A DNA stretch of 51,777 nt, from the IMG/VR virus record IMGVR_UViG_3300020042_005180, positions 1 through 51,777 of that record, one strand, 5' to 3'. The translations under genes were made by a program, and so were the position numbers. Below, piece by piece: positions 1-50,256 of the stretch. The stretch comes from a virus. Its lineage: Duplodnaviria; Caudoviricetes. The notes beneath the pieces are model-generated. The model had not been told where the DNA came from. It saw only the letters and a program-made list of their open reading frames with translations, and ran no database searches. Position 1 is the stretch's first letter, and each line of letters starts with the position of its first letter.

Positions 1-111
1 GTACTGGTAGCGCATGTCCTTGTACTCGTCTCCGCTCATTATAAGACCACTCGAGGTGGTCTTTTTTTCTACTAACTTATCAACGATAATATATTTATTT
101 AATACCTTCAT
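1..111 (-). CDS. groES: Co-chaperonin GroES-like protein (5' part only, runs off the window)
   Basis: Manual translation from ATG 111: MKVLNKYIIVDKLVEKKTTSSGLIMSGDEYKDMRYQY, resembling the GroES N-terminus and mobile loop (KTxSGLI). Overlaps the end of groEL by 17 nt. Confidence 0.85.
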   Translation of the reverse strand, partial: MKVLNKYIIVDKLVEKKTTSSGLIMSGDEYKDMRYQY

Positions 112-1654
112 AGTCTCTTATGTTTGTTATAATTGCGTTTGTGCTCATAATTGTTGTCGCCACAGATACAGCGTTAAGTAGTGCGTTCTTGGTAACCTTA
201 GTTGGATCAATAATCCCCATCTTCATCATGTTACCGTACACCTCGTTCTTTACGTCATAACCCTCACCCATCCCCAACAACTCTAACTTAATAATTTGTG
301 GGTCCTTGCCTGCATTTATAAGTATCTGATCAAATGGTGCGCTCAAGGTATCGAACATTATGTTATGAGCTATACTGTCACCCATAACCAAGTCCAAGCA
401 GTTCAATAACGCAACACCGCCTCCAGGAAGTATCCCGTCCTCCATCGCAGCCATAACCGCACACACAGCGTCATCGATCCTGTCCCTCTTCTCCTTCTGC
501 TCGATGTCACTAAGTGCACCCACATATATAACGCCAACACCTCCAGATATATTTGCAATACGCTCCTTTAAGAACTCCCTGTCGTTTGCGTCTGTAGTCT
601 CCCATACCTGGTGCTTCAAGTCAGCAACCCTCATGTCGATAGACTCCTTCATCTCTGATGCATTCATAAACACTGTCATATTCTTCTTCACAACGACTTT
701 AGATGCCCTACCAAGGTCAGACATAGATATAAGCGACAAGTCGTCTCCTGTGTCCTCTGAGAGGTAAGTACCGCCAAGCGCAACAGCTAGGTCCTCTAGT
801 AGGTCCTTCTTCCTGTACCCAAACGATGGTGGTATAATGTTACAGGCCTTGATCTTGCCCTGAGCCACGTTCACGTTTAGTGTGTTAACTGCGTTCTGGC
901 CAAGTGTACCTATGATCAACAAAGATCTGCCCTGGCTAACGATTGGTGCAAGTATAGACTCTAGGTTTGATAGGTTGTTTATCTCGTGGTCTGTGATCAG
1001 TACGTATGGATTCTCTAACACACACTCCTGCTTCTTGTGGTCGTTGATGAAGTACTTAGACGTGTATCCACGGTCTATCTTCATACCACTAATAATCTCT
1101 ACGTGTGTGTCTGAGTTCATGCTGTTCTCCACGGTAACCATGTCAACCTCGTTGAATGCATCAGAGATCATCTTGCCGATCTGCTTGTCGTTGTTTGCAC
1201 TGATAGATGCCACGTCATACAACTTCTTACCGCTGACCTTCTTGCTGACCTTACTAAGCCTAGCCACAACAGCTGCCGTGATGTCGTTGATCTCACGTAT
1301 CACCTCTATCACATTGGTGTTTGAGTCAACGTGATCGTCTGCTGCATTGATTATGGCCTCTGCCAACACGATTGATGTGGTTGTACCGTCACCAGCTACT
1401 GTAGATGTCTTGTCAGCCGCCTGGCGCATCATCATTACAGCCAAGTTCTCGGTCGGGTCGTACAGGTTGATCGACTTTGCAACCGTCACACCGTCCTTTG
1501 TTACGGTGATGCCACCTACATGGTTCTCTGACTCTATTAATACCGTCCGACCTCTGGCACCTAAGGTGCTTTTTACCGCCCCAGCGATGATTTTAATGCC
1601 GTTTTTTAATTTTTTCTGGCCTTCATCGCCAAAATAGACTTGTTTTACTATCAT
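95..1654 (-). CDS. groEL: Phage-encoded chaperonin GroEL (Cpn60)
   Basis: TKDGVTVAKSI, AGDGTTT ATP-binding motif, KRDRIDDAV, GILPGGGVALL, GIIDPTKV. 519 aa, no GGM tail. Confidence 0.97.
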   Translation of the reverse strand: MIVKQVYFGDEGQKKLKNGIKIIAGAVKSTLGARGRTVLIESENHVGGITVTKDGVTVAKSINLYDPTENLAVMMMRQAADKTSTVAGDGTTTSIVLAEAIINAADDHVDSNTNVIEVIREINDITAAVVARLSKVSKKVSGKKLYDVASISANNDKQIGKMISDAFNEVDMVTVENSMNSDTHVEIISGMKIDRGYTSKYFINDHKKQECVLENPYVLITDHEINNLSNLESILAPIVSQGRSLLIIGTLGQNAVNTLNVNVAQGKIKACNIIPPSFGYRKKDLLEDLAVALGGTYLSEDTGDDLSLISMSDLGRASKVVVKKNMTVFMNASEMKESIDMRVADLKHQVWETTDANDREFLKERIANISGGVGVIYVGALSDIEQKEKRDRIDDAVCAVMAAMEDGILPGGGVALLNCLDLVMGDSIAHNIMFDTLSAPFDQILINAGKDPQIIKLELLGMGEGYDVKNEVYGNMMKMGIIDPTKVTKNALLNAVSVATTIMSTNAIITNIRDYEGIK

Positions 1655-3183: not shown

Positions 3184-3594
3184 TTATTGATTTCTTTTCT
3201 TCTTGGCAGCAATAAACTGTTTTTCCATATTAGCGTTTGCCTTTTGAGCAGCCTCTTTCTCTGCTCTGGCAGCAGATATTGAAGTGTTATCTTTTCTGTC
3301 CATAAACGCATTAGATGCGTAGCCTGGAAGTAGATTAAATCTATTATTATCCATCATGGTCATTTTCTCATCACCTATAATATGCTTCATAGCACCTGTA
3401 TCACCCATAATGTAGTTTATTTCAGCATCTGTTTTTGTAGTATAGTCACTTACTTGTTTGGCGCTTGGCTTTACAGTCACCTCTTTAAATTTAGTGTCTG
3501 GTCGAACTATCATTGAATCTGGAATAATGGTTGTGTCCCTAGTTAAACGATCGATCGCTTTGTTTTTGAACGGGATAGAGTTGTAGTCTTTCAT
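3184..3594 (-). CDS. Hypothetical protein, paralog A (MKDYNSIPFKNKAIDRLTR N-terminus)
   Basis: 136-aa ORF; promoter box TACATTTG at 3621-3628. Confidence 0.8.
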   Translation of the reverse strand: MKDYNSIPFKNKAIDRLTRDTTIIPDSMIVRPDTKFKEVTVKPSAKQVSDYTTKTDAEINYIMGDTGAMKHIIGDEKMTMMDNNRFNLLPGYASNAFMDRKDNTSISAARAEKEAAQKANANMEKQFIAAKKKRNQ

Positions 3595-3642
3595 AATAAT
3601 TGTTTTTATAATTGTTTTTACAAATGTACTAATTATAATTGT

Positions 3643-4023
3643 TTATTCCTCAACCTTAGATAAAAAAAAACTTAAAAAGGATGCTCCCGTTAATCCAGCT
3701 CCAATATTGTTCATGTTATTTTTTATTTTTGATTTTATTTGCGATTTTTTTGCCGCCTTTAAATCTTTATACGCACCTGTTTCTTTGTATGGTCTGCTAT
3801 CTACAATCTTGTCGTTAGACTGATCTCTCTGAGAGATTCTTGCAACCTTCGGGCTCGCTAGTTTCATAGGGTTACCCGATTGATCGTAAGTTATATTAGC
3901 AGGAGTAACCTTAACCTCTTGAATCTGAGTGCCTTTGTTCTGAGTGCCTGGTACTATGGTTGTGTTCCTAGTTAATCGATCGATTGCCTTGTTTTTGAAT
4001 GGTATAGAGTTATAGTCCTTCAT
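3643..4023 (-). CDS. Hypothetical protein, paralog B (same N-terminus)
   Basis: 126-aa ORF; promoter box TATCTTTG at 4039-4046; hydrophobic C-terminal segment. Confidence 0.8.
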   Translation of the reverse strand: MKDYNSIPFKNKAIDRLTRNTTIVPGTQNKGTQIQEVKVTPANITYDQSGNPMKLASPKVARISQRDQSNDKIVDSRPYKETGAYKDLKAAKKSQIKSKIKNNMNNIGAGLTGASFLSFFLSKVEE

Positions 4024-21047: not shown

Positions 21048-21320
21048 TTAACAGTTCCATTTTTTTAATGCAAGGGTCTTTCTTGTAGGTTCTCCGTTTG
21101 GTTTTTTAGCAGGGCCTGGCATACCAGACATTCTAGCGCAAAAGCTTTTTCTTCTTTTTTCGTCTTTGCTTCCTGGTTTAATTTTAGATGGAGCAGTAGT
21201 TACTGCCATCTTAAGTTTACTTCCAGGGTTATCTGCCCTATAACTTGCTACACCTTTAGCATTTAATCCACCTTTGGGATTCTTACCTTCTTTCCTAGTC
21301 CAAGCTGCTGTCTTTGCCAT
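21048..21320 (-). CDS. Small basic protein (DUF6321-like)
   Basis: AWTRKEGKNPKGGLNAKG...RRKSFCARM...LKKWNC. Confidence 0.85.
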   Translation of the reverse strand: MAKTAAWTRKEGKNPKGGLNAKGVASYRADNPGSKLKMAVTTAPSKIKPGSKDEKRRKSFCARMSGMPGPAKKPNGEPTRKTLALKKWNC

Positions 21321-21921: not shown

Positions 21922-22092
21922 ATGGAAAATATAACACTAGAGGCTATGTGTGCCGCAGTCGAGGACTACATATATAAAAAGAAGAACGTAAGGGTTCGTA
22001 TTGAAATTTCTTACCATCCATTCTTTATACAGCGTCAAGTTGATATGCTACACTGGTGCTACAACTTCGCCCTCATGGACTTGACTATCTGA
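21922..22092 (+). CDS. Small protein (56 aa) on the strand opposite the late module
   Basis: MENITLEAMCAAVEDYIYKKKNVRVRIEI...; TACATTTG box at 21911-21918; 34-nt convergent overlap with the giant gene. Confidence 0.65.
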   Translation: MENITLEAMCAAVEDYIYKKKNVRVRIEISYHPFFIQRQVDMLHWCYNFALMDLTI

Positions 22093-25000
22093 TCGGCTGT
22101 CTTACCTGCCTTTATTTCAAGCAATGTCCTACCAGTTACCTCCCCTAATGTATTTAATAACTTAACATACTCTCTACCTTGAGCTAAGTTTAATCCACCT
22201 CCCCTGTTTACCCAGTTAATATCTTTAGATATATACTCATACTCCTTGTCAGACTTAATCATTCCCATCTCAAATTGAGACGGCTCACGTTTAAACTCTT
22301 TCTTAAAATCTTCATATTTAGTATACTCTGACTCAGACATGGCATTCTTTTTAACCATGTTCACAACCTTTGTAACTATTTGGTCTGACTCTTTTGGAAG
22401 TATACCCATCGCAAATAACGTAGAGAAGTAAAGAGTGTTCTTCATTAAGTCTTGCTCTACTGGTCTTATCTTCTTTATGGTTATATTTCCCTTGTATTCA
22501 TCCTCAAATTCTCCAGTAATAGCTAAGCTATAGTCATTATATATTTTTTTGTATAGATCTGATGCAATAGATATCATCCCTAATCCATGATTATCATCAT
22601 ACTTGCTTCCGACTTGATATAAGCTTTTTTGCTTTTCTTCTTGTCTGAACTTATCTTCCTGTTTTTTATCCATTGGATCTTCGTCCTTTAATGACCTTAT
22701 TTCGTTTTCCTGTTTAACTAGTTCATCTAATTCAGATTCATTGTATCCAGTAGTAAAAGAAAGTAACAGGTCGGTAGACATTGTAACATATCTATCTGTC
22801 ATCTGAATAGGTGAAATTATATCATTTATCATTGACTTAACAGGAAACTTTGTTGCGCTTTCTAACATCTTCTTGTCGTCCTCATCATCGTCATCATCGT
22901 CACCCAAAATTCCAAGAACGATTGCTTTAGCAACCTTATACAAGCCAATACCGATACCGACAGATATAGCCCTATACGCAACCATCTCCGCTACTGTAGC
23001 AGCTGCTGACTTATATGCAATTTTTCGGTCTTCATTACTAGTTGTCTTAGAACCTATGTTTATTATATCTGAATTTAATCTAGCCTTTTGATTTAATCCA
23101 AAGGAAGCAAATGGAAATAATATCTTCTTAGCCATCCTCTTCATACCATCTTCAGCAGTTAAGAATTCTCCACCAAGCATTGGGTCTGATATGTTTTGTT
23201 GCCTGTCAACCATTGACTGGGCATAGTTTAATGCATCTTGGTTTGGTTTATGATCAGCCCAGTCTATAGAACTCTCTCCCATATACTGTAGGTAGTATGA
23301 CTGGAATCCAGACCTAGCAATAAATACATCTGGCCTTGACAAGAAAAACTTTACATATAATTGTTGAACCTCTTGAATAGTTTTTAATGAGTCCTTGAAC
23401 TTAGTGCCCTTAGCTTCCATCCTTCTATCTATAGACTCTATAGTAGATAATGACTCAATACCTCTATTCGATATTGGCATACCAGTATTATTTAGCCACT
23501 CATTAAATTCAAGTGTAGCTATATTAAACTTACCTGTCATCATAGCTGTACTTATTGCGATTGGTACAGTTTGTTTTACAGACTGTAGTACACCACCTAG
23601 CGCCTTTCCAACACCAAGGCTTGCAGCAAAGTTAAGTACAGCATCTGCATCCTTATACAAATCTGAAGGAATAAATATCTTACCCTTAGCTCTCCTTATA
23701 TATATATTTACTCTTGTTTCAAGTAGTTCTCTATCTTTAGCAGTAGGTATTAATTTATTTAATAGATTTGAGTTTAAGAATCCATCAACCTGTCTTATAC
23801 CTGCTGCTGTGTTTATATCAACTAGTGCACCCTTCAACGAGTTTGAGTTATTTGAATCAAAGTCAAGGCTTACATATCTACCTACTTCCATAGTAGTAGG
23901 TCTAGTTGACTCCATTAAAACACCTGTCTTAGTCTTATCTATTACTTTATCCATACTGATTAAGAATGATGAATTACGTTCTAATAATTCTTTATCAATT
24001 GATTTTGTCTTAAGTATTTTAAATTGATCTGGGGTATAGTTAACATCACTTCCTAAATCATAGTTATATATAGACAAACTAACATCGTGAAGGTCTTTAT
24101 AGTGTTTAGACCACTGGTCAACCCACCAGTCAACTGCATCTCTATTTTCCTTTGATGCATTTGAGTTAATAACATCCATGTCCCCAGTGCTTACACCTAG
24201 CTTATCAAATACTTTTTGATAAACTTCTGCCATAGTTTTTTGAGATTTATCTCCATAGTTATTTAAAACATCAATACTTTGTGTTATTAAATTAACTCTT
24301 CTATTTGTCTCTGCCTTCATTTCTTCCAATGATCCAGTTACATTTCTCTTTAAGAATGACAGCATGCCCCTCTCGTATACATTTTCAGGGTTATGGAACG
24401 TCTTGCTATTCTTTATGAACTTTTCGTAGTACTCATTTATTATCTTATTGTGTAGATAGTTCGCCTTATTAACACCGTTAATAACAATATCAAGTCCCAT
24501 AGACTTCATCACACTTATCCCACTTTTAACTCCACTAAACATCCTCTCTATCATCAGTGAAAGAGGTGTAAACTCTTTTCCAAAGATCCTGCCTAGTCTA
24601 GGACTAAAGTAAAGCTTTAATGCCCTAGCAACTTTACCAGACTTTATCTGTTCTTTAAGACCAAGTTGCCCCTTGTATGCAGACAAAGCCCCCTCTAGCT
24701 TGCTAGTGATTCCGTTGTTGATAAAGTTATCCATCGCCTCTACAGCAAATATAGCATCCCTGATAGACATCTCTGACAGGTCAACCTTCAACAAATCTGA
24801 TATTATAGCCCTATCCTTTACTGTTATAGCTACCTGCTCTCCAGTGAATGGATTTTGATTAGTTTTTATAATGTCTGTAACTATTGATGCCAATGACTCA
24901 AACCTTTTTAGTAGGTAAGATCTAACATACCTTTCCTTTTCTTTGCTGTCCATCTTATACTCTGGATCCTTGATCGCATTTAAGATCTCTTGTATCTCCT

Positions 25001-28000
25001 TTATTGTCATGTCACCAGATATCACTCCAGATTCTAATAGGTCATTATTAATAGCCAACAACTCAGCCTTTAATTTTTGATCTTGTTTTTCAAGTGCATC
25101 CTTTGAAAAGTTTGATACCGTCTCTATGTTTGCAGATTCTTTAAGTACCACGTCTAGTCCCTTCACTCTTGATGGGGCTACCGCGTTCTTAACTATCTCA
25201 GCCATATCTATATAGTCATCTATATTTTCAACCATAGATGGGTCTATCTTTGCAAACTCATTGGCCATGCCTACAACCTGTGCCTGATTGTCTGACTTTA
25301 ATAACCTCTTTATAGCTCTCCTGTACGAGAATGCATTGTTTAATCTTTCTTGATAGTCTGCCCTATCGAATACCTTAGCTGCGTAGTCAATAAGTCTTTC
25401 AACCATAACTGGGTTGTCAAGGTTTACTTGACTAACTCTCTTGATGATTGTGGACGCTTGGCTCACCTTCAATTTTCCAAGCTTGACCATCCCTTTGATG
25501 GCATCAGACAACGACTTTCTTTTTGAGTTAAGATCAGCCTTAGCCTCTCTAGCTGCCTTGGCCTCTAGTCTTAGTTGATCTTTAAATGCAGCCGCTTCGT
25601 TAACTGTAACCATCTTTGGTTTAGGCGTACCCATTACCTTAGCTACAGATGGTGCCTTCTTTAACTTTTGACTTTTAGATTGCTTGAAGTCTCTTATCTT
25701 CTGCTCTCTTTCTATGTCGGTTGCATCTTGATACCACTTTGACTTCTGTATGTAGTCTAGTGCATTCTGAGTAGCTTTGGGCCAAGTTGTTCCACGATCT
25801 AATGACTTCTTGAATACAGACTCAGACTCATTGTCCATCCTTGTTTCTTGTGGAGTCTTTTGGAATTTAATTTTTCCACCCTTAGCTGACTTAGTTTCAA
25901 ACATAGGATCAGATGGGGATATTTTTTTGGCGTTTTTAGCTAATACCAAGGCTCCTACTTGTATAACTTCCTCTGCCGAAGCTAGTGGCATACCGTCTGT
26001 CTTATCGTAGAACCAACTATGTCTGAATGGATTCATTCCTACCTGTGTCCAAGCAGGGTCATTCATTAATTCTTTTGCTCTAGCATATACAGCTTCTGGA
26101 TCTTCATTAACCCAATCACCAAACATTCTAGCTATAGTTGATTTATTCTGAGTGTCCATTGCTATTCTTATAGCAGGGCCAGGAAATGTTTTAAAATCTA
26201 CATTTTTTAGGACAGCTGTTTGACCATATGCAATTGATTTACCTTCTTTATTTCCATCATGAATTGAAACAACCCATGTATCATAATCTTCATAAGCAGG
26301 GATATCTAATCTAGATGCTACCTTTTCTCCATCTTCAAGATTTTTAGTAAGACCAATAATACCTGTGGCTACTTTTGAAGTATCTAATGAATTAGTTATA
26401 TCTTCTAAACTTGGTAAGGTAGGAACTTCTTTAAAAGACTTAATAGGTTGATTTTTAGAAACAATATTAAGGTATTCCTCTTGATTTATTAATTCATTAT
26501 AATAATCTTTTGCTGCTTGTTCTACTATTGGGTTTCTCTTTTGTTTTTGATTAACCTTATTATTTTTTCTCCAAGATTCTCTTTGCTCTTTAGTTTGACC
26601 AAGTGATTCTAAAGCTGCATCATAACCAGGCTTGGCTTCTTTATCTGTTGTTAGTTGAGTCTTCTGCTGTTTTATTTTACCTATCTCATCTTGTTCAATA
26701 AAATCTAATTGTTTAATATAGTTTAATGCCTCTTGGATTGGTAAATCTATTTTAGTTATATCAATAGGTAAATCATTAATTGAAGAATAATACCATCTAT
26801 GATGTCCGTCAATAATATAATTATCACTACTTACAATAACTTTTTTTGAATAAGGTGCATCGTTTTTAAATTTATCTGTATTATCTATATTTATTTCATT
26901 TTGACTTGGCTTTAACGTATTTGCCATGGCCCCATCTATATCCTCAAAACTTATTTTATCGTTCTTTAATTTATCAAATAGAATAGGTAAAAACCTTGTT
27001 CTTATTTGTGGCATTTCACTTCTCTTTAATCCTAAACTTTCTTTTGGATAAAATATATTTTTACCATCCTCTTGACTAATTTCTCCTTCAACTCCAGTCT
27101 TTTGTTGTTTTATTTTGGATGGTTGTTCAGTATCATCTATATCCTCATCCTCTACAGCTTGACCTTCTTCTTCAGCTTTAATTTCGTAATTAAATTTTTC
27201 GCCAGCTGATTTCCATTTATCATATGTATAATTTGCAGCATCTTCATAACTAATTCCTTCAATATTTGCTTGAACTCCAAGTGTTTTATAAAGATTTTTT
27301 TCAAAATACCAAAGTATTGCTTGAGTATCAGCAATACTTAAATCATATCCCTGCTTGTTTAATTTATTTACAGCATCAGATATAGTATCATACATGAATT
27401 GACGATCGCTACTATTAAATGGAGCGTCATTAATATTTTCAAAAGCGGCTTTATATATTGTATTTGCTGCTTTTTCTACTTCGGTTCCATTTTTATATCC
27501 TTTAGCAGCGTAAGAATCACGATAAGATCTAGAAGCTAGCAAAGCTTCCTCGTTATTCATCTCTGGATTTCCAAGCAACGCCTTAAATCTATCAAGGCCG
27601 ATAGCTTCACCCTTTGTATTAAAACCTTTATTAACTGTTGGTATTAGTGTACCTCTATATCTATTAAACGTCCTAGACCACCATCTATCAAGTGTTGGAT
27701 ATGCTTCATTTCCTGATAGATTAGAGAAGAACATTCCTAATTTTGCCCCAAATACAGAAGCAGCAAACGGAGCTTTAAAGCTAACAGGCCAACTAGTTTT
27801 TAATGGCGCAAGACCCTCTTTTTTTCTTTCTTTATTTATATCTTGAATAGATCTAACATCCATTAAGTCTTTTTTAATAGCAGCTATATCTCCATTATAT
27901 TCAACAAGTAAATCATTTATTCTTTTTAGATTGGCTTCGAAAGAAGCTACTCTATTGCCAGAAAGAGTGATTGGCATCACACCATTTTTTTTATAATAAT

Positions 28001-31000
28001 CGTATGCTTCAGAAGCCAATTTGAAATTACTCATAACCTTCTGACCATCAGATGTAATTGCTACAAGCATAGTAAACAAATCTCTTGCATTCTGATCTGT
28101 TTTCATTTCAGGGAAAATCTTAGACATTCTATCTAATGACTTTTGATACAATTTACCATACCAACCTTTACCACTTTTATCACCCATAACACCAATGAAG
28201 TACTTTACTTCATCAACCATCCAGTTAGATATTTTTTTACGAGCTTCTGGAGAGTTATCCTTTTGAGAAATTGTACCATATTTAGCACGTTGCCTAGCTT
28301 CAAGTGCTTCCCCAATTTTTCTAGTTATATTCTTTCCTTTTTTTAAACCAAACTTCTCTAGGGATTCATTTCCCTTCATAATTTCTGTAGCCTGCTTTTT
28401 AATTTTACCTTCACCTCTATAATCTCCCTCAATCGCCTTACCAGTCATAAGACTTTTAGACATATAATTAATAAAGTCAACAGCCTCTTGTGCAGTTGCA
28501 CTAGACTTTATTATTACAGGTAAACCTAAGCTTTTAGCTATTCTATTAATTAGATTTAAAAACTTTTGAAACTTTGTTGTTGTTAACTCAGTCTCTGCTT
28601 CGGACATAATAGCTCCAAGCTCAGACAGAAACTCCTCTGCCCTATCTGATTCCTTATACATAGAGATAAACTTGTCTAACTTAGCCTTAACCTCTTTATC
28701 TGATATAATATTTTTAAGACCATTAGCAAAGTCAGTTATAGTCTGAAAAGACTTTCCAGACCTTAGTATTGCCTCGTGGAATGCCTCGTGTAGTATTGTA
28801 GTTTCCTTAGCAGTCTCCATGTTTATATGAATCTCTTTCTTAATTTGAGCTCCTGCTGCATTTTCTACCTCATTAGATATATCATCTACATCTCTACCAG
28901 TTGTATCTGCTATGGCTTGGTGCATCTCTGACTTATTGTTGTGAAGGTATACCTTAACACCAGGCAAAGACCTCATTATCATAGCTGCTGACTTAACTAT
29001 TTTTTGTTTTAACGGTGTATCTTGTCTCGATACCATCTCTCTTGAGTTCTCAGTGGTAACTAAGTTTTGCTTGTACTCTGCTTTCTTAGTTTCTGTCTTA
29101 GCTGCAACTTCTTGAGTGCCAAAAACATTTGGCATTCTTCCCTCCTTCAACGCCTTAGCAATTTCCTTAAACTGCTGTGGTGTAAACTCCATTGGGTTTT
29201 CTCCCGTTGCACCAGTCTTTACATTTTCAAATGTGCTCATGTCAAACAGAGACTCTTGTCCTGACAATCGACCAAACTCAATAGCTTGACCTCTAGATGA
29301 TTCAGGTGCAAGTATGTTAAGGTCTATAGATACCTGATTGCTATTGGGGAACTTATAGATACCAACCTTTACCGTCTCAGAGTCTCCGATCTTATCAGAG
29401 TGCTCTTCAACAAAGTTAGATATCATATCTGGAGTAAGCTCATCCATTGTTGTGTTCATGCTAATTACAGGTACAACTAATCCAGGACCTTCGTACTTAA
29501 CTCCGTCAATATTAAATGTAGCACCATCCTCATCAACTTCGTTCAATGACTTTACTCGGCCCACCTCTGCTGTTGTGTTGGTAGCAATGGCAGGTTTGTC
29601 TATTGTTATTTCAGTTGTAGTTTCTAACAAAGGACTGATTAGCTTGTCGTACTTGTTGTAAATCTTATTGTACTTATCTAGTACAGTCTTTGGCATGAGA
29701 GTTTTATCTACCTCACCATTTACTTTGTAGCTTTCTATTTTAGGTATGGCCTTAAGAAGCTCCGCTTGTTCTTCAGATCTGTAGGTAGCTACTTCTTCTT
29801 GTACTTTGCTTGAGATAGTGCTATCGCCACTATCTGTTTCATTGACCGTGGCTTGCCGTTGTCCCCCTTCGCTGACCCCGACTTCTTGTTGTCCTTCACT
29901 AGTTCCTTGATATTCGCTGACACCGCCTTCTGTTGTGCCTGCTTGCTGTTGTTCTGTGGTTTCTTTAGTGGCATTTTTGCTTATTGTTTTTAGTTCGTCA
30001 TTAATCTTGTTTATTCTGTCAGTTTGAGCAGCAACGAGGGCAGGATCTTTTCCTTCTCTTTGTTTGGTTAACCTAATCTTTTCAGAAACTAAATTAATTG
30101 ATTTTATTTGATCTTCAGGGCTAATGTCGTCAGGAATACTCTCAAACATACCTGAGAATTCATTCATGTTCTGTAGCTCTGCCTCAGCCTCTGACTTAGT
30201 AAGTTTACCTGTTAATATATCGGACTTTAAGTTAGCAACAATTATTTTTTTAAATTCCTTATCGGTAGACATCTCCTTTAAAAACTTTAAATCTTTCTCA
30301 TTGTACAGTGAAATATTTCCTGTCATGATTCCAGTTGTAACGGTTCCAAATGTTGATATTGTCATACCACCTATCGCTTCCATTAAGCCATCTTCCCATA
30401 CCCTTGTTGCGCCCTCAGAAAACGAGGCTGGAGTTGTAAAATACTCATCCCCAGTTAAAGTTTCAAGTTCTCCATTACGCATTTTTTTACCTTTAACTGT
30501 ATTATACAGGGCCTTTAAGCCAATATCTAATACAAGTGATTGAGTAGCACCAGTTTCAAATTCAGCAAGTGTACCATTTGCTATCCTCATAACACCCTTA
30601 CCAATTAAACTTTTAACTTCTTTATTAATTATTTTTTCAAGAGCTATCTTTTCAAATCCATCTGGCATCTTTTTTAATGACCTAGATATGATGCCCTTAA
30701 ATAATCCACCTGAAAATGATTCGCCCTTTACTGCGTTCTTTAATCCATAATTTTCAAGGACACCCATAAGGACCGCGTATGGAACAGCTATGATAGCTCT
30801 ATCTGCCGCACTAGTTGTTTTAAAGTCTGGGTCGTCAAGCATCTCATCCTCAATAGAGCTGTATGCCTGAGACGCTAAAGCGCTAAAGCTTGCTGTTGAT
30901 CCAGCAAACCCAGCCAACATTGCAGGTGCTGACTCGGCAACTCCATATATTGCCTTCTCAAATAGACCAACATCTTTTGAAGACATATACTCCTTTGTTG

Positions 31001-33167
31001 TTTCACTTCCAAGCGCCCCTATAACTATACCTCTTAATCCTTTTTTCTGACGTTTTCGTATTTCGTTTAGAGATATATTTCTAATCTCTTTGTCTGTATA
31101 TCCCTGATCCTTATAATATTTTTCTTCTTCAACATCTGTATACACCCTAACATCATTTGCCACATTATATCCCTGCATCGAACCAGTTATTAATGGTTCA
31201 ACTATCTTAACTATACCTGTCAGAACTGAGTTAAGAACCCCACCTCCAAATGATCCTATCTGTGCCTTTGACTTAATATATTCTCCAGCTACAACATTTA
31301 TCTTTTTTTGTGATTTTTCTATGTTATTAAATGAAGTAGATATGTTGTCTCTTCTTATTTCAAGGGCTTCTGCCTTATCTTCTAATATCTTTTTTTGCGA
31401 TTCATAAACCTCCCTGGACATTGTCGCAGCTGACTTATTAAAGATTTCGACTAATACTTCGTATTGGTTTATGTCATCCTTTAATTTTTTACCTGAATTA
31501 GCTAAGTCATTTAAGTGGATGTTATAGTTCAGAACTTGACCTTGAACTATCTCTTCAGTCAGGTATGTATCTATCTTGCTTTTTACTTGTTTCTTTAGTT
31601 CCTTATTTCCAGAAGTTTCTGCTACACTAAGTTGTTCATATAATGACTTTATTTTTTGGTCATTTATATTATACTGTTCTTCTTTTTTCTTTTTGTATAT
31701 ATCATATAAAGGTCCATCGATCAATTTATATTTTGATCCATGTTCTGTAGTCCTACTATCTACCTCTATCCTCATTTCATCAAGTGATAGGGACTTGAAT
31801 AAGTTTTTATATTCTTCTGAGTTATAATATTTTTTTATTTCAGTTTGTGTCTTAACATTGTCAGTAGGTATAGCCCTTGAAATGTCGTATTCACTATCCT
31901 CAAATGACTTCCTTATATACCCTAATCTTTTGCTTATTTTAGATGATTGATCAGAAGTTCTTTTTGATGCGTTTTGCTCTAAAAAGTTTCTAAGCTTTAA
32001 TGCCTCGTCAGGATTTTTTTCATCAAACTCTACAGTTATTTCCTTACGATTTGATGCAGTAACTCTAACCCTGTCTATGTTAAACAATCCCTCTTGAGAG
32101 AACGAAAAGCCATAGTCTTTGTATTTCTTATCTAGATAAGCAACTGCACTTTCTTCTGTTTTTGCAGTTAGAGAAGAGTTAATATCTGCAAATTTTAATT
32201 TTTCTTCTTTTACTGTAGGAGATGCAACTTCTTTATATTCAACGTCTTTACCGTATCTTTCATTTAATGCAGATATAGCATTCTTATCAGAAACAGTACT
32301 GTATTCAGCAGCTCCTGGAATTAATCTCTTCCACTCACCGTTGTCTATTTTATATAAATTGTATTTTTTCTCTTCAGTATCATCGAAATTAGTAAACACC
32401 TCATCTATAGCATCTAAAGAGGCCTCCTTTTTAAAGTAATTATTAAGTGCTAATAGTCTGTCTTTTTCCTTTATAGGAACCCATTCCTGTTCTGTTGAGA
32501 ATGCATTAAGGTTAATCAAAGAATTTTGCCTAGTTATAGTTCCTCCTCCTGGCTGAACTATTGTTTCATATGTTGGCTTTGCGGCTTTTGCCTCAAACCA
32601 ATGATTGCCTACAAGTTTGTAAGCCTTACCCTCTTTCCCTGGATATCCTCTGTATATATCCTTGCTACTAAGATCACTTTCTATAGATTCCTCTGCTATC
32701 TTATCGTCATATTCCTTTTGAATCTGTGCTTGTAATACCTTCTCTTTAGCTGCTAAATCTTCCTCTTGTTCATATATATTGGGATTTTGGGCCTTAAATT
32801 GTGCTGGATAACTATTGTCACCTAACGGCTCTTTAGAAACTGGTTTGCCAGATGTAGTCAACGATGGCGGCGGTTTTTTTTCTGCTTGTGCACTACCTTC
32901 CTGCATTCGTTTTATAATGGCACCTTCATCCCATTCATCTACTTGGGGCTTGTCTTCAGCTCTTTTTGCATTTTTATTTAGCTCCTTTACTCTATTAGCT
33001 ATATTTCCTCCTTCGAGTGCTAAAAATTTACCGTTATACTCTCTAGACCAACTCCCGTTTGATTTCTTATATCTTACGCCACCGTATATATATATACCGT
33101 CATCCCCTCCATTTAAATATTCTGAGGAGCTTAGGAAATCATCTGGAGATAATTGTCTACCTAACAT
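22059..33167 (-). CDS. Giant (3702 aa) polyvalent virion/ejection protein
   Basis: Lies after smaller ejection-type genes; contains a zincin HEAFH motif, a ParB/Srx-like domain (IIDGHHRW), an HhH-glycosylase-like domain and coiled coils. Confidence 0.88.
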   Translation of the reverse strand: MLGRQLSPDDFLSSSEYLNGGDDGIYIYGGVRYKKSNGSWSREYNGKFLALEGGNIANRVKELNKNAKRAEDKPQVDEWDEGAIIKRMQEGSAQAEKKPPPSLTTSGKPVSKEPLGDNSYPAQFKAQNPNIYEQEEDLAAKEKVLQAQIQKEYDDKIAEESIESDLSSKDIYRGYPGKEGKAYKLVGNHWFEAKAAKPTYETIVQPGGGTITRQNSLINLNAFSTEQEWVPIKEKDRLLALNNYFKKEASLDAIDEVFTNFDDTEEKKYNLYKIDNGEWKRLIPGAAEYSTVSDKNAISALNERYGKDVEYKEVASPTVKEEKLKFADINSSLTAKTEESAVAYLDKKYKDYGFSFSQEGLFNIDRVRVTASNRKEITVEFDEKNPDEALKLRNFLEQNASKRTSDQSSKISKRLGYIRKSFEDSEYDISRAIPTDNVKTQTEIKKYYNSEEYKNLFKSLSLDEMRIEVDSRTTEHGSKYKLIDGPLYDIYKKKKEEQYNINDQKIKSLYEQLSVAETSGNKELKKQVKSKIDTYLTEEIVQGQVLNYNIHLNDLANSGKKLKDDINQYEVLVEIFNKSAATMSREVYESQKKILEDKAEALEIRRDNISTSFNNIEKSQKKINVVAGEYIKSKAQIGSFGGGVLNSVLTGIVKIVEPLITGSMQGYNVANDVRVYTDVEEEKYYKDQGYTDKEIRNISLNEIRKRQKKGLRGIVIGALGSETTKEYMSSKDVGLFEKAIYGVAESAPAMLAGFAGSTASFSALASQAYSSIEDEMLDDPDFKTTSAADRAIIAVPYAVLMGVLENYGLKNAVKGESFSGGLFKGIISRSLKKMPDGFEKIALEKIINKEVKSLIGKGVMRIANGTLAEFETGATQSLVLDIGLKALYNTVKGKKMRNGELETLTGDEYFTTPASFSEGATRVWEDGLMEAIGGMTISTFGTVTTGIMTGNISLYNEKDLKFLKEMSTDKEFKKIIVANLKSDILTGKLTKSEAEAELQNMNEFSGMFESIPDDISPEDQIKSINLVSEKIRLTKQREGKDPALVAAQTDRINKINDELKTISKNATKETTEQQQAGTTEGGVSEYQGTSEGQQEVGVSEGGQRQATVNETDSGDSTISSKVQEEVATYRSEEQAELLKAIPKIESYKVNGEVDKTLMPKTVLDKYNKIYNKYDKLISPLLETTTEITIDKPAIATNTTAEVGRVKSLNEVDEDGATFNIDGVKYEGPGLVVPVISMNTTMDELTPDMISNFVEEHSDKIGDSETVKVGIYKFPNSNQVSIDLNILAPESSRGQAIEFGRLSGQESLFDMSTFENVKTGATGENPMEFTPQQFKEIAKALKEGRMPNVFGTQEVAAKTETKKAEYKQNLVTTENSREMVSRQDTPLKQKIVKSAAMIMRSLPGVKVYLHNNKSEMHQAIADTTGRDVDDISNEVENAAGAQIKKEIHINMETAKETTILHEAFHEAILRSGKSFQTITDFANGLKNIISDKEVKAKLDKFISMYKESDRAEEFLSELGAIMSEAETELTTTKFQKFLNLINRIAKSLGLPVIIKSSATAQEAVDFINYMSKSLMTGKAIEGDYRGEGKIKKQATEIMKGNESLEKFGLKKGKNITRKIGEALEARQRAKYGTISQKDNSPEARKKISNWMVDEVKYFIGVMGDKSGKGWYGKLYQKSLDRMSKIFPEMKTDQNARDLFTMLVAITSDGQKVMSNFKLASEAYDYYKKNGVMPITLSGNRVASFEANLKRINDLLVEYNGDIAAIKKDLMDVRSIQDINKERKKEGLAPLKTSWPVSFKAPFAASVFGAKLGMFFSNLSGNEAYPTLDRWWSRTFNRYRGTLIPTVNKGFNTKGEAIGLDRFKALLGNPEMNNEEALLASRSYRDSYAAKGYKNGTEVEKAANTIYKAAFENINDAPFNSSDRQFMYDTISDAVNKLNKQGYDLSIADTQAILWYFEKNLYKTLGVQANIEGISYEDAANYTYDKWKSAGEKFNYEIKAEEEGQAVEDEDIDDTEQPSKIKQQKTGVEGEISQEDGKNIFYPKESLGLKRSEMPQIRTRFLPILFDKLKNDKISFEDIDGAMANTLKPSQNEINIDNTDKFKNDAPYSKKVIVSSDNYIIDGHHRWYYSSINDLPIDITKIDLPIQEALNYIKQLDFIEQDEIGKIKQQKTQLTTDKEAKPGYDAALESLGQTKEQRESWRKNNKVNQKQKRNPIVEQAAKDYYNELINQEEYLNIVSKNQPIKSFKEVPTLPSLEDITNSLDTSKVATGIIGLTKNLEDGEKVASRLDIPAYEDYDTWVVSIHDGNKEGKSIAYGQTAVLKNVDFKTFPGPAIRIAMDTQNKSTIARMFGDWVNEDPEAVYARAKELMNDPAWTQVGMNPFRHSWFYDKTDGMPLASAEEVIQVGALVLAKNAKKISPSDPMFETKSAKGGKIKFQKTPQETRMDNESESVFKKSLDRGTTWPKATQNALDYIQKSKWYQDATDIEREQKIRDFKQSKSQKLKKAPSVAKVMGTPKPKMVTVNEAAAFKDQLRLEAKAAREAKADLNSKRKSLSDAIKGMVKLGKLKVSQASTIIKRVSQVNLDNPVMVERLIDYAAKVFDRADYQERLNNAFSYRRAIKRLLKSDNQAQVVGMANEFAKIDPSMVENIDDYIDMAEIVKNAVAPSRVKGLDVVLKESANIETVSNFSKDALEKQDQKLKAELLAINNDLLESGVISGDMTIKEIQEILNAIKDPEYKMDSKEKERYVRSYLLKRFESLASIVTDIIKTNQNPFTGEQVAITVKDRAIISDLLKVDLSEMSIRDAIFAVEAMDNFINNGITSKLEGALSAYKGQLGLKEQIKSGKVARALKLYFSPRLGRIFGKEFTPLSLMIERMFSGVKSGISVMKSMGLDIVINGVNKANYLHNKIINEYYEKFIKNSKTFHNPENVYERGMLSFLKRNVTGSLEEMKAETNRRVNLITQSIDVLNNYGDKSQKTMAEVYQKVFDKLGVSTGDMDVINSNASKENRDAVDWWVDQWSKHYKDLHDVSLSIYNYDLGSDVNYTPDQFKILKTKSIDKELLERNSSFLISMDKVIDKTKTGVLMESTRPTTMEVGRYVSLDFDSNNSNSLKGALVDINTAAGIRQVDGFLNSNLLNKLIPTAKDRELLETRVNIYIRRAKGKIFIPSDLYKDADAVLNFAASLGVGKALGGVLQSVKQTVPIAISTAMMTGKFNIATLEFNEWLNNTGMPISNRGIESLSTIESIDRRMEAKGTKFKDSLKTIQEVQQLYVKFFLSRPDVFIARSGFQSYYLQYMGESSIDWADHKPNQDALNYAQSMVDRQQNISDPMLGGEFLTAEDGMKRMAKKILFPFASFGLNQKARLNSDIINIGSKTTSNEDRKIAYKSAAATVAEMVAYRAISVGIGIGLYKVAKAIVLGILGDDDDDDEDDKKMLESATKFPVKSMINDIISPIQMTDRYVTMSTDLLLSFTTGYNESELDELVKQENEIRSLKDEDPMDKKQEDKFRQEEKQKSLYQVGSKYDDNHGLGMISIASDLYKKIYNDYSLAITGEFEDEYKGNITIKKIRPVEQDLMKNTLYFSTLFAMGILPKESDQIVTKVVNMVKKNAMSESEYTKYEDFKKEFKREPSQFEMGMIKSDKEYEYISKDINWVNRGGGLNLAQGREYVKLLNTLGEVTGRTLLEIKAGKTADQIVKSMRAKL
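29789..29974 (-). CDS. Nested out-of-frame small basic protein (MPLKK...ANI.EL...KQ.VAIALS type)
   Basis: 61 aa; resembles a recalled family of stand-alone phage genes; A-rich leader aactaaaaacaataagcaaaaATG. Confidence 0.7.
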   Translation of the reverse strand: MPLKKPQNNSKQAQQKAVSANIKELVKDNKKSGSAKGDNGKPRSMKQIVAIALSQAKYKKK

Positions 33168-33172
33168 GTTTT

Positions 33173-34570
33173 TTATTTTTTATTTCTTTCTGAATAAATA
33201 GTGTTGATCCATTTTCTCCACTTCTCTTGTCCTGTTGCACTACCATATCCAAATAGATCGCCCATTTCTATAACACTTTTGAAATATCTAGATGGTAAAT
33301 CCTTTTCATTATCTGGCTTTAATCCTAGTCCTTTATTCTTATCATAAACAAATTGTTTACCACCACTTAAGCTTGATAACTTGCTGAAATTACCACCTGT
33401 AAATGCGTCATATGCTTCTTGTACAACTGATGGTATTTCATTGTCATCATCTTTATTGCCGCCGCCGCCGCCGCCGCTGCCGCCGCTATAGTTGGGTTCA
33501 TCTTCTGACTTTTGATATCCTATCTGAGACTTTATTTTATCCATTATTATATCCGCAGCTACCTTTCTTTGTTCTTTTGTTATCATAGGTTGATATACCC
33601 CACTGCCATCAGGAGCAACTAGTATCATTTGTTTTTCAAATGTGGAATATAATTTTTTAATTTCTTCTTCTGTATACGCTTCCCCCCCAAATTCAGATCT
33701 TGTCTGTTTTTCAACATCAATCATAGCCGATATCTTTGAATTTTTTTCTTCCTCAGTTCTATACCAGTCATAATTTTCAGTTGGATATTTAGCTAATACT
33801 TGATTTACCCACCTATCATTGTTTAGTACAAGGTTCTGTAGACTAATAACTGCTTTTTGTGTAGCTTCATTAGCTAGTGGATCTGTAATTGTTGATTTGC
33901 CATTTTCTGTTGTATATTCAGCCAACCCCTTTGTTCCATTTGATATAATAGTCTCAAAGTTTACTGTATTGTCATAGAAATTATTAGGCACTGCATATCT
34001 AAATGTGGGTGTCATACTAGTTGGATCTATATTACCGTCTTTGTCAAATTTTGCAATATAAGGCTCGCCTGTGTTTGCATCAAAGTATATCTTTTTATTT
34101 GCTAGTTCTCCTAATTCAGTATGAATCATAGATAGATATTGCTCATATTCAGATCCATCTGACAGACCAGTCGTTTGATCTGGAGTTTGCCTTTTCATAA
34201 ATTCTGCGTTAGCATTGTCATATGTCTTAGCTGAGTTAGCAAGAGTACTCCACTTGCTCTGCAAGTTGTTTACTCTTCTTTTAAAACCTTGAGGACTCAA
34301 TGTGCGAGCCTTTACCTCTGCGGTCCATTTTGCTATTTGTTCCCTTCCAGCATCGGATCCAGAAAACATTAAATTATTAAAAGTTTGCGAGCTATACAAT
34401 TGATCCTTACTCATTAAATCATTTGCCTTAGTCGTCAAAAGATCTATTGCTTCCTTATTTTCTTGTCTGTTAGTGCCTATCGTATTAACCTTATTGATCA
34501 GGTCAGTAGTTATTGTGCCCCAGTCTACGGCAGCTGTTGGTATATATGAACTATAATTTTCTTGGGCCAT
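33173..34570 (-). CDS. Putative internal virion/ejection protein
   Basis: 465 aa, VDWG N-terminal motif, poly-Gly linker; position in module. Confidence 0.7.
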   Translation of the reverse strand: MAQENYSSYIPTAAVDWGTITTDLINKVNTIGTNRQENKEAIDLLTTKANDLMSKDQLYSSQTFNNLMFSGSDAGREQIAKWTAEVKARTLSPQGFKRRVNNLQSKWSTLANSAKTYDNANAEFMKRQTPDQTTGLSDGSEYEQYLSMIHTELGELANKKIYFDANTGEPYIAKFDKDGNIDPTSMTPTFRYAVPNNFYDNTVNFETIISNGTKGLAEYTTENGKSTITDPLANEATQKAVISLQNLVLNNDRWVNQVLAKYPTENYDWYRTEEEKNSKISAMIDVEKQTRSEFGGEAYTEEEIKKLYSTFEKQMILVAPDGSGVYQPMITKEQRKVAADIIMDKIKSQIGYQKSEDEPNYSGGSGGGGGGNKDDDNEIPSVVQEAYDAFTGGNFSKLSSLSGGKQFVYDKNKGLGLKPDNEKDLPSRYFKSVIEMGDLFGYGSATGQEKWRKWINTIYSERNKK

Positions 34571-49164: not shown

Positions 49165-50256
49165 TTAACGTTTTTTTATTACTAATCTGCCTCCACGATC
49201 TTGATCTAAAACTCTAACCTGCATTCCATTACTAGGAGCGTTTTGAGGTGTTTGTCTAGTCATGTCAATATTCTTTGATTCCCTAGATACACCATCAATT
49301 GCTTCTGACTTGCCTTGCTCATAAAAGAACTTAGCAAATTTTTCTGGATTTGAGGCTACAGAAATAGCACGGTGAAAGGCTTCAGCATCTGCAAGATATC
49401 CATCATTATTTAAGAACTTCGAAATGAAGCCACTTAAATCAACTTGTTCTTGCAATAAGGTTTTAGGTTCTGCTGGCTTATAAACTAACTTCTTATTATC
49501 AGAAATGTTAAACCCGAAACCTTCGAATTTATCTGAAAATAATTCATTTGTTTTGTCAGAGAAATACCTAGACCTCTTCTGTTGCTCTTCATCGTTAAGC
49601 GAGGAAGACTCTCTATTTTTCTTGTAAGCATCATAAGCATCTCTTTCTCCTTGTGGAACAAAAGACTCCCTTGACTCAAGTGGAACCTTGTACTGTTCTT
49701 TCATTTCGTTGAAATACTTTTTAGCTTTAGCAAGCTCTTTTTTCTTTGCTATTTGTTTTTTCTTGATATCTTTTTCATCATCATAATCTGAATCATATGA
49801 AAAATTACTTTCTATATCAAACTTAATATCTTCAGCGTCTAAATCTGCATTTTGACTCTTATAATATTCAAACAACAAAGAATTGGGTTCTTCGGCATCA
49901 TAGTCTTTACTCAATTGAATAAAGTCTTGGATGCTTCGTCCCGTTTCTTTTTTATACTTTAAAAAGGTAGACACATCTTCAGGTAACTCTTCGTTATCCC
50001 TACGTTGGTCTGCCAATTCATCTAACGATGTAATCTCTCGATTCCATCTTTTCCCAAGATATGAAAGAACTCTATTATCATCTAACTCTTCAGCAATATT
50101 TTCTTCTACTACTGGTTGTAAGTTTACACTATCTATATTCTCAGGTTCAGGTGCTCCATTTAATTTCTCATCATGCTGCTTTAGCAATTGATTTTCAATT
50201 TCTGACACACTTTTTTCTTCGAACTCTACAGCCCTTACTTTAAATTCTTCTTCCAT
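49165..50256 (-). CDS. Putative capsid scaffolding protein
   Basis: Acidic coiled coil between portal and capsid genes, FFYEQGK motif; TAACTTTG box at 50278-50285. Confidence 0.65.
   Translation of the reverse strand: MEEEFKVRAVEFEEKSVSEIENQLLKQHDEKLNGAPEPENIDSVNLQPVVEENIAEELDDNRVLSYLGKRWNREITSLDELADQRRDNEELPEDVSTFLKYKKETGRSIQDFIQLSKDYDAEEPNSLLFEYYKSQNADLDAEDIKFDIESNFSYDSDYDDEKDIKKKQIAKKKELAKAKKYFNEMKEQYKVPLESRESFVPQGERDAYDAYKKNRESSSLNDEEQQKRSRYFSDKTNELFSDKFEGFGFNISDNKKLVYKPAEPKTLLQEQVDLSGFISKFLNNDGYLADAEAFHRAISVASNPEKFAKFFYEQGKSEAIDGVSRESKNIDMTRQTPQNAPSNGMQVRVLDQDRGGRLVIKKR

Follow-up and report, generated by a model that had tools for sequence, protein, structure and literature searches.

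Among tailed phages, the most familiar genes nested within other genes are those of the spanins. In phage lambda, Rz1 is a complete small gene in the +1 frame of Rz, a larger late gene on the same strand, and the lipoprotein that it encodes is the obligate partner of the Rz protein (PMC6139136). Embedded spanin genes are mostly missed by gene callers; "separated" architectures exist too, and the survey that describes them found no spanin family whose members include both kinds (PMC6139136). A second described class comprises virus genes created de novo through overprinting, which, like the locus presented here, are internal overlaps in the +1 frame with one frame prone to disorder (PMC8227390). 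Here we describe a giant gene whose +1 frame contains a small basic gene, in the virus record IMGVR_UViG_3300020042_005180, a phage fragment of 51,777 nucleotides (nt; 51.8 kb) that we call the window. The nested gene belongs to a family that is widespread as stand-alone genes, its slot is exchangeable, and at least 170 distinct nested copies were found. No description of the arrangement was found in the literature searched, most subscription papers lying outside that search.

The nested open reading frame (ORF) occupies positions 29789..29974 of the minus strand, starts with ATG, stops with TAG, has 61 codons, and lies wholly within the giant gene (22059..33167, minus strand; 3,702 amino acids [aa]). 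Its ATG consists of bases 2 and 3 of host codon N1065 and base 1 of A1066, which places it in the +1 frame. The nested peptide has an isoelectric point (pI) of 10.5, with 16 lysine or arginine and 3 aspartate or glutamate residues. The host reading of the overlap (29790..29975, minus strand; giant residues 1065 to 1126) is an acidic polar linker of 62 residues with a pI of 4.05, 12 aspartate or glutamate residues, and 3 lysine or arginine residues, and it ties for the least hydrophobic stretch of that size in the giant. A preliminary description of this DNA had pointed to a same-strand alternate-frame ORF with an A-rich leader and to an acidic linker encoded by the same bases; both are present, and the peptide sequence is as it was quoted. 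The window holds one copy of the nested gene, and the cassette has a higher G+C content (0.49) than the DNA upstream of it (0.34). An AlphaFold model of the peptide, with helices at residues 11 to 29 and 45 to 55 and a mean predicted local distance difference test score of 83, predicts a two-helix hairpin. A search by fold among viral proteins returned only uncharacterised small proteins with E values above 0.2, and an NCBIfam search gave no match. In contrast to Rz1, a lipoprotein, the peptide is soluble and basic, and its host is of about 3,700 aa; we rejected a Rz/Rz1 spanin identity, which calls for a lipoprotein signal with a cysteine in the nested product and for a host protein that has an N-terminal membrane anchor and is encoded in the lysis cassette, because the peptide has no cysteine, no hydrophobic leader or segment, and no spanin family match.

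ORF length was also rejected as evidence. Among 300 synonymously resampled giants, 97 hold a +1 ATG ORF of at least 61 codons, and the nested stretch itself stays open in 4,418 of 20,000 synonymous resamplings, so its openness is within chance. The claim of a nested gene rests instead on a family match and on a substitution pattern, because both of these exceed chance and length does not.

The nested peptide gives a significant profile match to phrog_2423 (E value, 1.4e-4), and its nested relatives L099 and L062 (L numbers are our labels for viral loci) match the same profile at 2.7e-9 and 4.7e-10. Against DUF6496 (PF20106), the peptide has an E value of 1.4e-4 and scores 22.6 bits over profile positions 3 to 50 of 58, below the gathering cut-off of 24; stand-alone relatives exceed this cut-off, at 29 bits, and DUF6496 occurs in 15% and 51% of members among Atlas neighbours of the peptide. 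We refer to this phrog_2423/DUF6496-like group as family A. Searching a predicted-protein collection with the peptide returned 27 proteins, and a profile built from these reached 743 clusters at 50% identity (E values up to 1e-3). On viral contigs, 12 of the 15 direct relatives are nested; the best 80 of 239 confirmed stretches from the profile search, a set that includes the contigs of those 15, comprise 50 stand-alone and 30 nested genes, the latter always in the same frame. Family A is annotated as stand-alone or fused genes in cultured phages of several phyla, among them Enterobacter, Caulobacter, Prochlorococcus, Clostridium, and Acinetobacter phages. The window protein thus shares a sequence match with small families of unassigned role, from whose known, stand-alone members it differs in being nested, and its inter-helix loop is longer than in short DUF6496 members such as the phiEap-2 gene. 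DUF6496 was not found by name in the literature searched. The preliminary description had named a stand-alone phage family and proposed a protein search with the 61-residue peptide; that family exists, and the search found its stand-alone phage homologues. The expectation that gene callers would miss the nested gene held for a GenBank record of an elemo phage, in which that phage's own nested gene is missing, but near-identical peptides (92 to 95%) were already in the predicted-protein collection. One database protein, P0015 (74 aa), is read from the host frame at its start and from the small frame at its end; it is probably a frameshift error or a deletion on a short contig.

Substitutions among nested copies follow the small frame. 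For 34 distinct nested copies of family A, compared as 17 disjoint pairs, the differences at the three host codon positions number 222/113/97 in the overlap and 354/287/443 upstream (p = 2.6e-13). This inverted pattern is the outcome of a substitution test in homologues of the giant that the preliminary description had suggested. Three other families, B, C, and D, take the place of family A in relatives (described below). In family B (27 copies, 13 pairs), the corresponding counts are 154/64/32 and 218/155/338; family C agrees on 2 pairs, and the result for family D is not significant. We also made an overlap-aware count on close pairs with clean contexts (13 pairs for A, 41 for B, and 16 for C). 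In the small frame, the ratio of changes that are non-synonymous in both frames (dNN) to those synonymous in the small frame only (dSN) is 0.04 for A (p = 9e-33), 0.07 for B, and 0.10 for C. Changes were found at 75 of 408 synonymous and 7 of 921 non-synonymous sites, meaning that synonymous changes are tolerated about 24 times more. Indels in aligned nested copies preserve both frames. In relatives, the small frame remains uninterrupted and purifying selection acts on it, and the stop codons in close relatives that would have spoken against a gene did not appear. We conclude that the 61-codon ORF is almost certainly a selected protein-coding frame.

The host frame is held differently. The ratio of dNN to changes non-synonymous in the small frame only (dNS) is 0.44 for A (p = 0.21), 0.58 for B (p = 0.033), and 0.83 for C (p = 0.69), indicating weak constraint on the host sequence. 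Host pN/pS above 1 in the overlap was rejected as a sign of positive selection, being an artefact of constraint in the other frame (PMC8227390). The composition of the overlap is distinctive, in codon counts that are weakened by taking no account of shared ancestry: lysine is encoded by AAG in 353 of 449 nested family A codons, compared with 165 of 425 in stand-alone genes, 32% in stand-alone family A genes below 40% G+C, and 35% in the host's own frame. At four-fold sites of family A, T makes up 1% in nested and 39% in stand-alone copies. Read in the host frame, nested copies have an aspartate-plus-glutamate fraction of 0.20 versus 0.08 for stand-alone copies, and a fraction of F, L, W, Y, and C of 0.02 versus 0.16. 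Family C, which is unrelated to A, shows the same compositional shift. Because the choice of A or G cannot avoid a stop codon, the AAG bias suggests that the linker is selected to be acidic and polar. The host frame appears to be kept only open, acidic, and polar, its character rather than its sequence being selected. Dual coding, as originally claimed, therefore stands for a strongly purified small frame and an open, acidic host frame, and it is narrowed in that the host linker is held in character and not in sequence.

Stand-alone genes contain a mean of 6.5 stops in the frame corresponding to the host's, and only 1 of 36 has none, so nesting needed either recoding or a rare permissive copy. 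We propose that the linker took in a stand-alone gene that already existed, which would have required synonymous changes to remove about 6 host-frame stops; this would be a natural example of a whole gene written into another by synonymous recoding. The opposite course is that the small genes arose de novo by overprinting acidic linkers, glutamate codons becoming lysine or arginine codons in the +1 frame, with stand-alone copies as escapees. The genetic code itself turns acidic into basic in that frame, overprinting most often yields internal overlaps in the +1 frame (PMC8227390), and nested copies group together on the peptide tree. All of the best 80 of 409 confirmed family B matches, found in a quarter of the collection, are likewise nested, in a count biased toward the nested query. 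Against de novo birth, family A is far wider than its nested set, extending over several phage hosts and the 743 clusters, and two unrelated families alternate at one site. The same review reports the de novo frame to be the more variable (PMC8227390). Here, the nested frame is conserved and widespread and the host linker behaves as the derived, tolerant reading; the small frame is neither narrower nor more variable, on a tree whose root is not established. We therefore regard de novo origin as improbable and capture of a pre-existing gene as very probable. The capture claimed by the preliminary description is accordingly the more parsimonious direction, though short of proven, since the peptide tree is unrooted.

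A test independent of the peptide used the conserved host segment directly upstream of the nested ATG (residues 865 to 1064; 29976..30575, minus strand) as a 200-residue probe, which recovered 70 loci. A +1 ORF beginning Met-Pro is the first ORF of at least 25 codons within 450 nt in 62 of the 70, and 64 contain a family member by profile. With already known loci removed, 53 of 59 have one (11 A, 32 B, 6 C, and 4 D); two extra flank cases, L133 and L101, are nested too. The slot thus has four types of occupant. Family A is unrelated to B (HHalign probability, 0.3%), and C and D are related to B (96% and 97%), so that, judged by profile comparison, two unrelated superfamilies of small basic genes alternate in the slot, an exchange that the preliminary description does not mention. 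On a flank tree of 72 rows, cassette type changes 17 times, between a minimum of 3 and a shuffled mean of 29.7; this is a quick-search tree with long branches, which lessens the weight of the count. Between L106 (A) and L102 (B), identity is 93% across the 300 nt upstream and 90% downstream; the two sequences part immediately past the start codons and rejoin shortly ahead of the lysine run and stop. Cassettes may recombine through these shared 5' (Met-Pro-Leu/Phe) and 3' (lysine run, stop) ends. Family B is absent from all 5 complete A carriers, and family A from all 5 complete B/C carriers; a single gene, from one superfamily or the other, may do the job in each genome.

In L101, L127, L136, and L197, partial cassette copies flank an inserted host segment, which suggests that the conserved cassette DNA also serves as a recombination joint, and the same DNA could be where host domains are inserted. 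The same host segment of about 75 residues is inserted at the cassette 5' end in L101:6601-7024, L136:6528-6806, and L137:6526-6916, preceded in L101 and L136 by a duplicated cassette start. We considered L136 as a decayed cassette and rejected this, as it has, at the end of a contig, a 5' partial copy followed by the host segment found before full cassettes in L101 and L137. L127:6566-6952 and L197:5001-5351 have a complete B cassette followed 120 to 190 nt later by a start-less 3' remnant, of type A in L127 and type B in L197. Such copies, the distinct G+C content of the cassette, and an ORF length within chance would fit conservation for a non-coding reason (a recombination joint, a promoter, or RNA structure) or a dead relic that makes no peptide. 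The roughly 24-fold greater tolerance of synonymous changes would not be seen in a DNA or RNA element, indels keep both frames, and there is no excess of promoters; we consider a non-coding explanation extremely unlikely.

Cassettes of these families are also nested elsewhere. By upstream host sequence, single-linkage clustering sorts the 170 distinct nested copies into 36 groups; one has 106 members, and some singletons may be diverged homologues. Among the best 80 of 292 confirmed family C matches, 42 are nested and 38 are not. In L215:4889-6043, L216, L218 to L220, and L246:4826-6118, a B-type cassette lies 36 to 58 codons in, within the acidic N-terminal part of a scaffold-like gene that sits between the portal and capsid genes. 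The L215 host gene shares 36% identity with the gene that occupies this place in the window and is likely, by this resemblance, a scaffold; the window's own scaffold-like homologue (49165-50256) has no such nested ORF. L264, L268, L269, L313, L323, and L328 have a C-type cassette about 50 codons into other large ORFs, not near codon 1,000, and in L329:5001-6353 and L316:5001-5933, a C-type peptide is the in-frame N terminus of proteins of 451 and 311 aa, the former ending in a phrog_4689-type basic domain. Nothing convincing was found for C-type peptides in cultured phages.

This spread bears on the possibility that the peptide specifically serves its host protein as a partner or chaperone, as Rz1 does for Rz, perhaps binding the acidic linker. 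Co-encoding guarantees co-expression, the charges are complementary, and lambda offers a precedent (PMC6139136). However, the same families stand alone away from giant genes, and nesting recurs in the 36 upstream contexts, including a scaffold-like gene. Unlike Rz1, an obligate partner, unrelated peptides swap within near-identical hosts and recur in different ones; families A and C also have both nested and separate members, a combination that the spanin survey did not find (PMC6139136). A partner role is, in our estimate, improbable.

Cultured phages provide a further case. The window's capsid protein is 48 to 49% identical to those of the Flavobacterium elemo phages (vB_FspP_elemo, Elemovirus) and 41% identical to that of Cellulophaga phi38:1; from this likeness, we infer a Flavobacterium-type podophage with a Bacteroidota host. 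A complete, unannotated nested +1 ORF of 42 aa is present at 3582-3710 of MT497075.1, in a 3,667-aa gene annotated "structural protein," and 68 elemo records match the D-type peptide under that name. As here, the nested gene lies in a giant, but it is of the D type of the B superfamily and not of family A. L165:2568-2687 is a second lysine-rich +1 ORF of 40 codons in the elemo giant, with no match to the four profiles. No family match was found in positions 25000-72534 of Cellulophaga phi38:1, which is not the whole genome, and the flank of the window's giant found no match in cultured phages. Annotation can thus miss a conserved gene even in cultured phages. Flavobacterium sp. BAL314 supports the growth of elemo phages, whose nested start could be removed by a knockout that leaves the host protein unchanged; this makes the phrog_2423/DUF6496-like family testable.

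Bacteroidota ribosomes disregard the Shine-Dalgarno sequence and make use of adenines at positions -3, -6, -12, and -13 (PMC6847099). The nested ATG is preceded by an A-rich leader lacking a Shine-Dalgarno sequence (29975..29998, minus strand; host residues ELKTISK), a likely internal translation start, and ribosomes would start there on late mRNA. Over the 20 bases preceding the ATG, adenine is so frequent that only 0.55% of 15,631 other +1 ATGs match it, and folding of the leader is weak (-1.2 kcal/mol, a value that 7.5% of 252 ATGs reach or exceed). In nested leaders outside the main group, A occupies positions -13 and -12 in 88%. A strong start signal was rejected, the leader being only moderate on a matrix and better on A content and folding. 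TAnnTTTG is the Bacteroidota promoter motif. One copy lies 170 nt upstream, with the motif at chance in the window (69 versus 59 +/- 8) and without enrichment upstream in relatives (19 of 169); 3 sigma-70-like sites compare with 3.3 expected, and no internal promoter is evident. Small shares were present in two RNA libraries, represented by contigs; we left unused a 183-nt contig (depth 3) on 29814-29990, as strand, start, and DNA contamination cannot be discerned from contigs.

Instead of a separate start, a +1 ribosomal frameshift might add a basic tail to the N-terminal ~1,065 residues of the giant; the moderate leader and the position of the slot, where a conserved N-terminal module gives way to a variable array of domains, would suit this. 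In the window, two +1-frame stops lie 3 and 6 codons before the nested ATG, leaving 2 open codons, and a +1 stop is found 1 to 8 codons from the ATG in all 30 nested loci, which argues against frameshifting. Moreover, all 170 distinct nested ORFs begin ATG-CCN, family A is N-terminal in 77 of 84 fusions, and the cassette also lies only 36 to 58 codons into other host frames. We hold frameshifting to be very unlikely and independent initiation at the nested ATG, as read from these patterns, to be highly probable.

Regarding function, small basic head proteins and tags include phiX174 J, the T4 internal proteins with their capsid-targeting sequence, and the basic helix-loop-helix of the P22 scaffold. 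The nested product resembles these, by analogy only, as a small, basic, probably head-associated, portable N-terminal module. Terminase, portal/adaptor, or major head genes are among the neighbours of 17 of 34 stand-alone loci, a raw count with no null that covers up to two or three genes per side, with two near-duplicate loci and several short opposite-strand ORFs dropped. The family A domain is N-terminal in the 77 of 84 longer proteins mentioned above, including L167:4001-5326 (Acinetobacter phage AP22 ORF28), where it forms the first ~40 residues of a protein named head maturation protease in RefSeq. Many Acinetobacter phage records show an AP22-like match with weak E values. A complex prediction for the peptide and the major capsid protein scored 0.00, which speaks neither for nor against. 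The terminase, portal, and head neighbours and the N-terminal fusion to a head protease lead us to favour, by a little, a product that acts in the head interior; it would enter the prohead and bind DNA, the inner capsid, or scaffold.

As the main alternative, the nested product could be real and translated and yet work outside the head, as a late protein that binds nucleic acid or ribosomes, in counter-defence, or as a lysis accessory. Small proteins of such high basicity are able to bind nucleic acids of any kind, and family swapping is typical of conflict genes. The Bacteroidota-like stand-alone genes L037, L038, and L045 lie amid non-structural genes (kinase, pyrophosphohydrolase, and methyltransferase), L055 follows an amidase/endolysin gene, and a B-like gene, gene 48, stands alone in Streptomyces phage FlowerPower directly before the holin gene. 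On the other hand, selection is strongly purifying and not diversifying, terminase and portal neighbours are frequent, the fusion partner is a head protease, the cassette nests in a scaffold-like gene, and the peptide lacks the hydrophobic segment that a lysis protein needs. An action outside the head is possible, although we consider it doubtful.

Overall, we favour a selected gene in a tolerant acidic linker, likely internally initiated and encoding a two-helix basic protein that likely acts inside the head, with a probability of about 60%. Several observations weigh against this, among them the weak constraint on the host sequence, the quick-search flank tree, the uncorrected codon counts, and the three stand-alone loci amid non-structural genes. 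Only 2 of the 4 informative adenines are present in the window's leader, which ranks 73 of 253 ATGs on a matrix built from 32 window genes; on the same matrix, the leaders of 72 relatives have a median percentile of 0.20, with 13 of 72 in the top 5%. The peptide has no meaningful sequence or fold match among solved structures, its tree cannot fix the direction of transfer, and the other half of the 34 stand-alone loci have no head gene among the neighbours tested. Finally, 6 of the 70 flank relatives (L143, L158, L159, and L161 to L163) are without a cassette; four of these records were checked and are 40 to 67% complete, with neither superfamily present, so the nested cassette may be dispensable.

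On a broader scale, we see an even chance that, in aquatic Bacteroidota-type phages, acidic disordered linkers within virion proteins generally serve as a hidden niche for genes. Two or more unrelated superfamilies of small basic genes would have moved into the +1 frame of giant and scaffold-like proteins, swapping as modules with one head function, and cassette DNA would be the joint where giant polyvalent proteins gain domains. Many "low-complexity linkers" would then be the shadow of an unannotated gene.

The giant itself is likely a virion-packaged polyvalent-type protein at the end of a run of structural genes. Polyvalent proteins combine several conflict domains, typically with a zincin-like metallopeptidase (MPTase), in one large protein (PMC5512222). 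The giant is similarly very large and modular, with variable downstream domains and an HEXXH motif, HEAFH, at residues 1460 to 1464 (28776..28790, minus strand). This motif suggests a zincin-like metallopeptidase domain; no family match was found at HEAFH, nor any to LPD or MPTase families, and matches to phrog_2859 and phrog_586/PF25735 fell below the cut-off. Membership is argued from motif and architecture only, and the account of polyvalent proteins, in its available text, is without a nested gene (PMC5512222). Portal, capsid, and muzzle-like genes are on the minus strand of the window. A 44-codon +1 ORF with a ten-alanine run (33370-33501, minus strand) lies inside a 465-aa gene upstream of the giant and is probably the shadow of a low-complexity host stretch. 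Shortly after the giant, a second small basic gene (21051-21320, minus strand; 89 aa) belongs to phrog_4689 (E value, 1.4e-28), a family that also adjoins stand-alone family A genes in L047, L058, and L069. A GroEL-like chaperonin gene (95-1654, minus strand; phrog_5725, PF00118) has a similar gene beside the stand-alone family A gene in L048.

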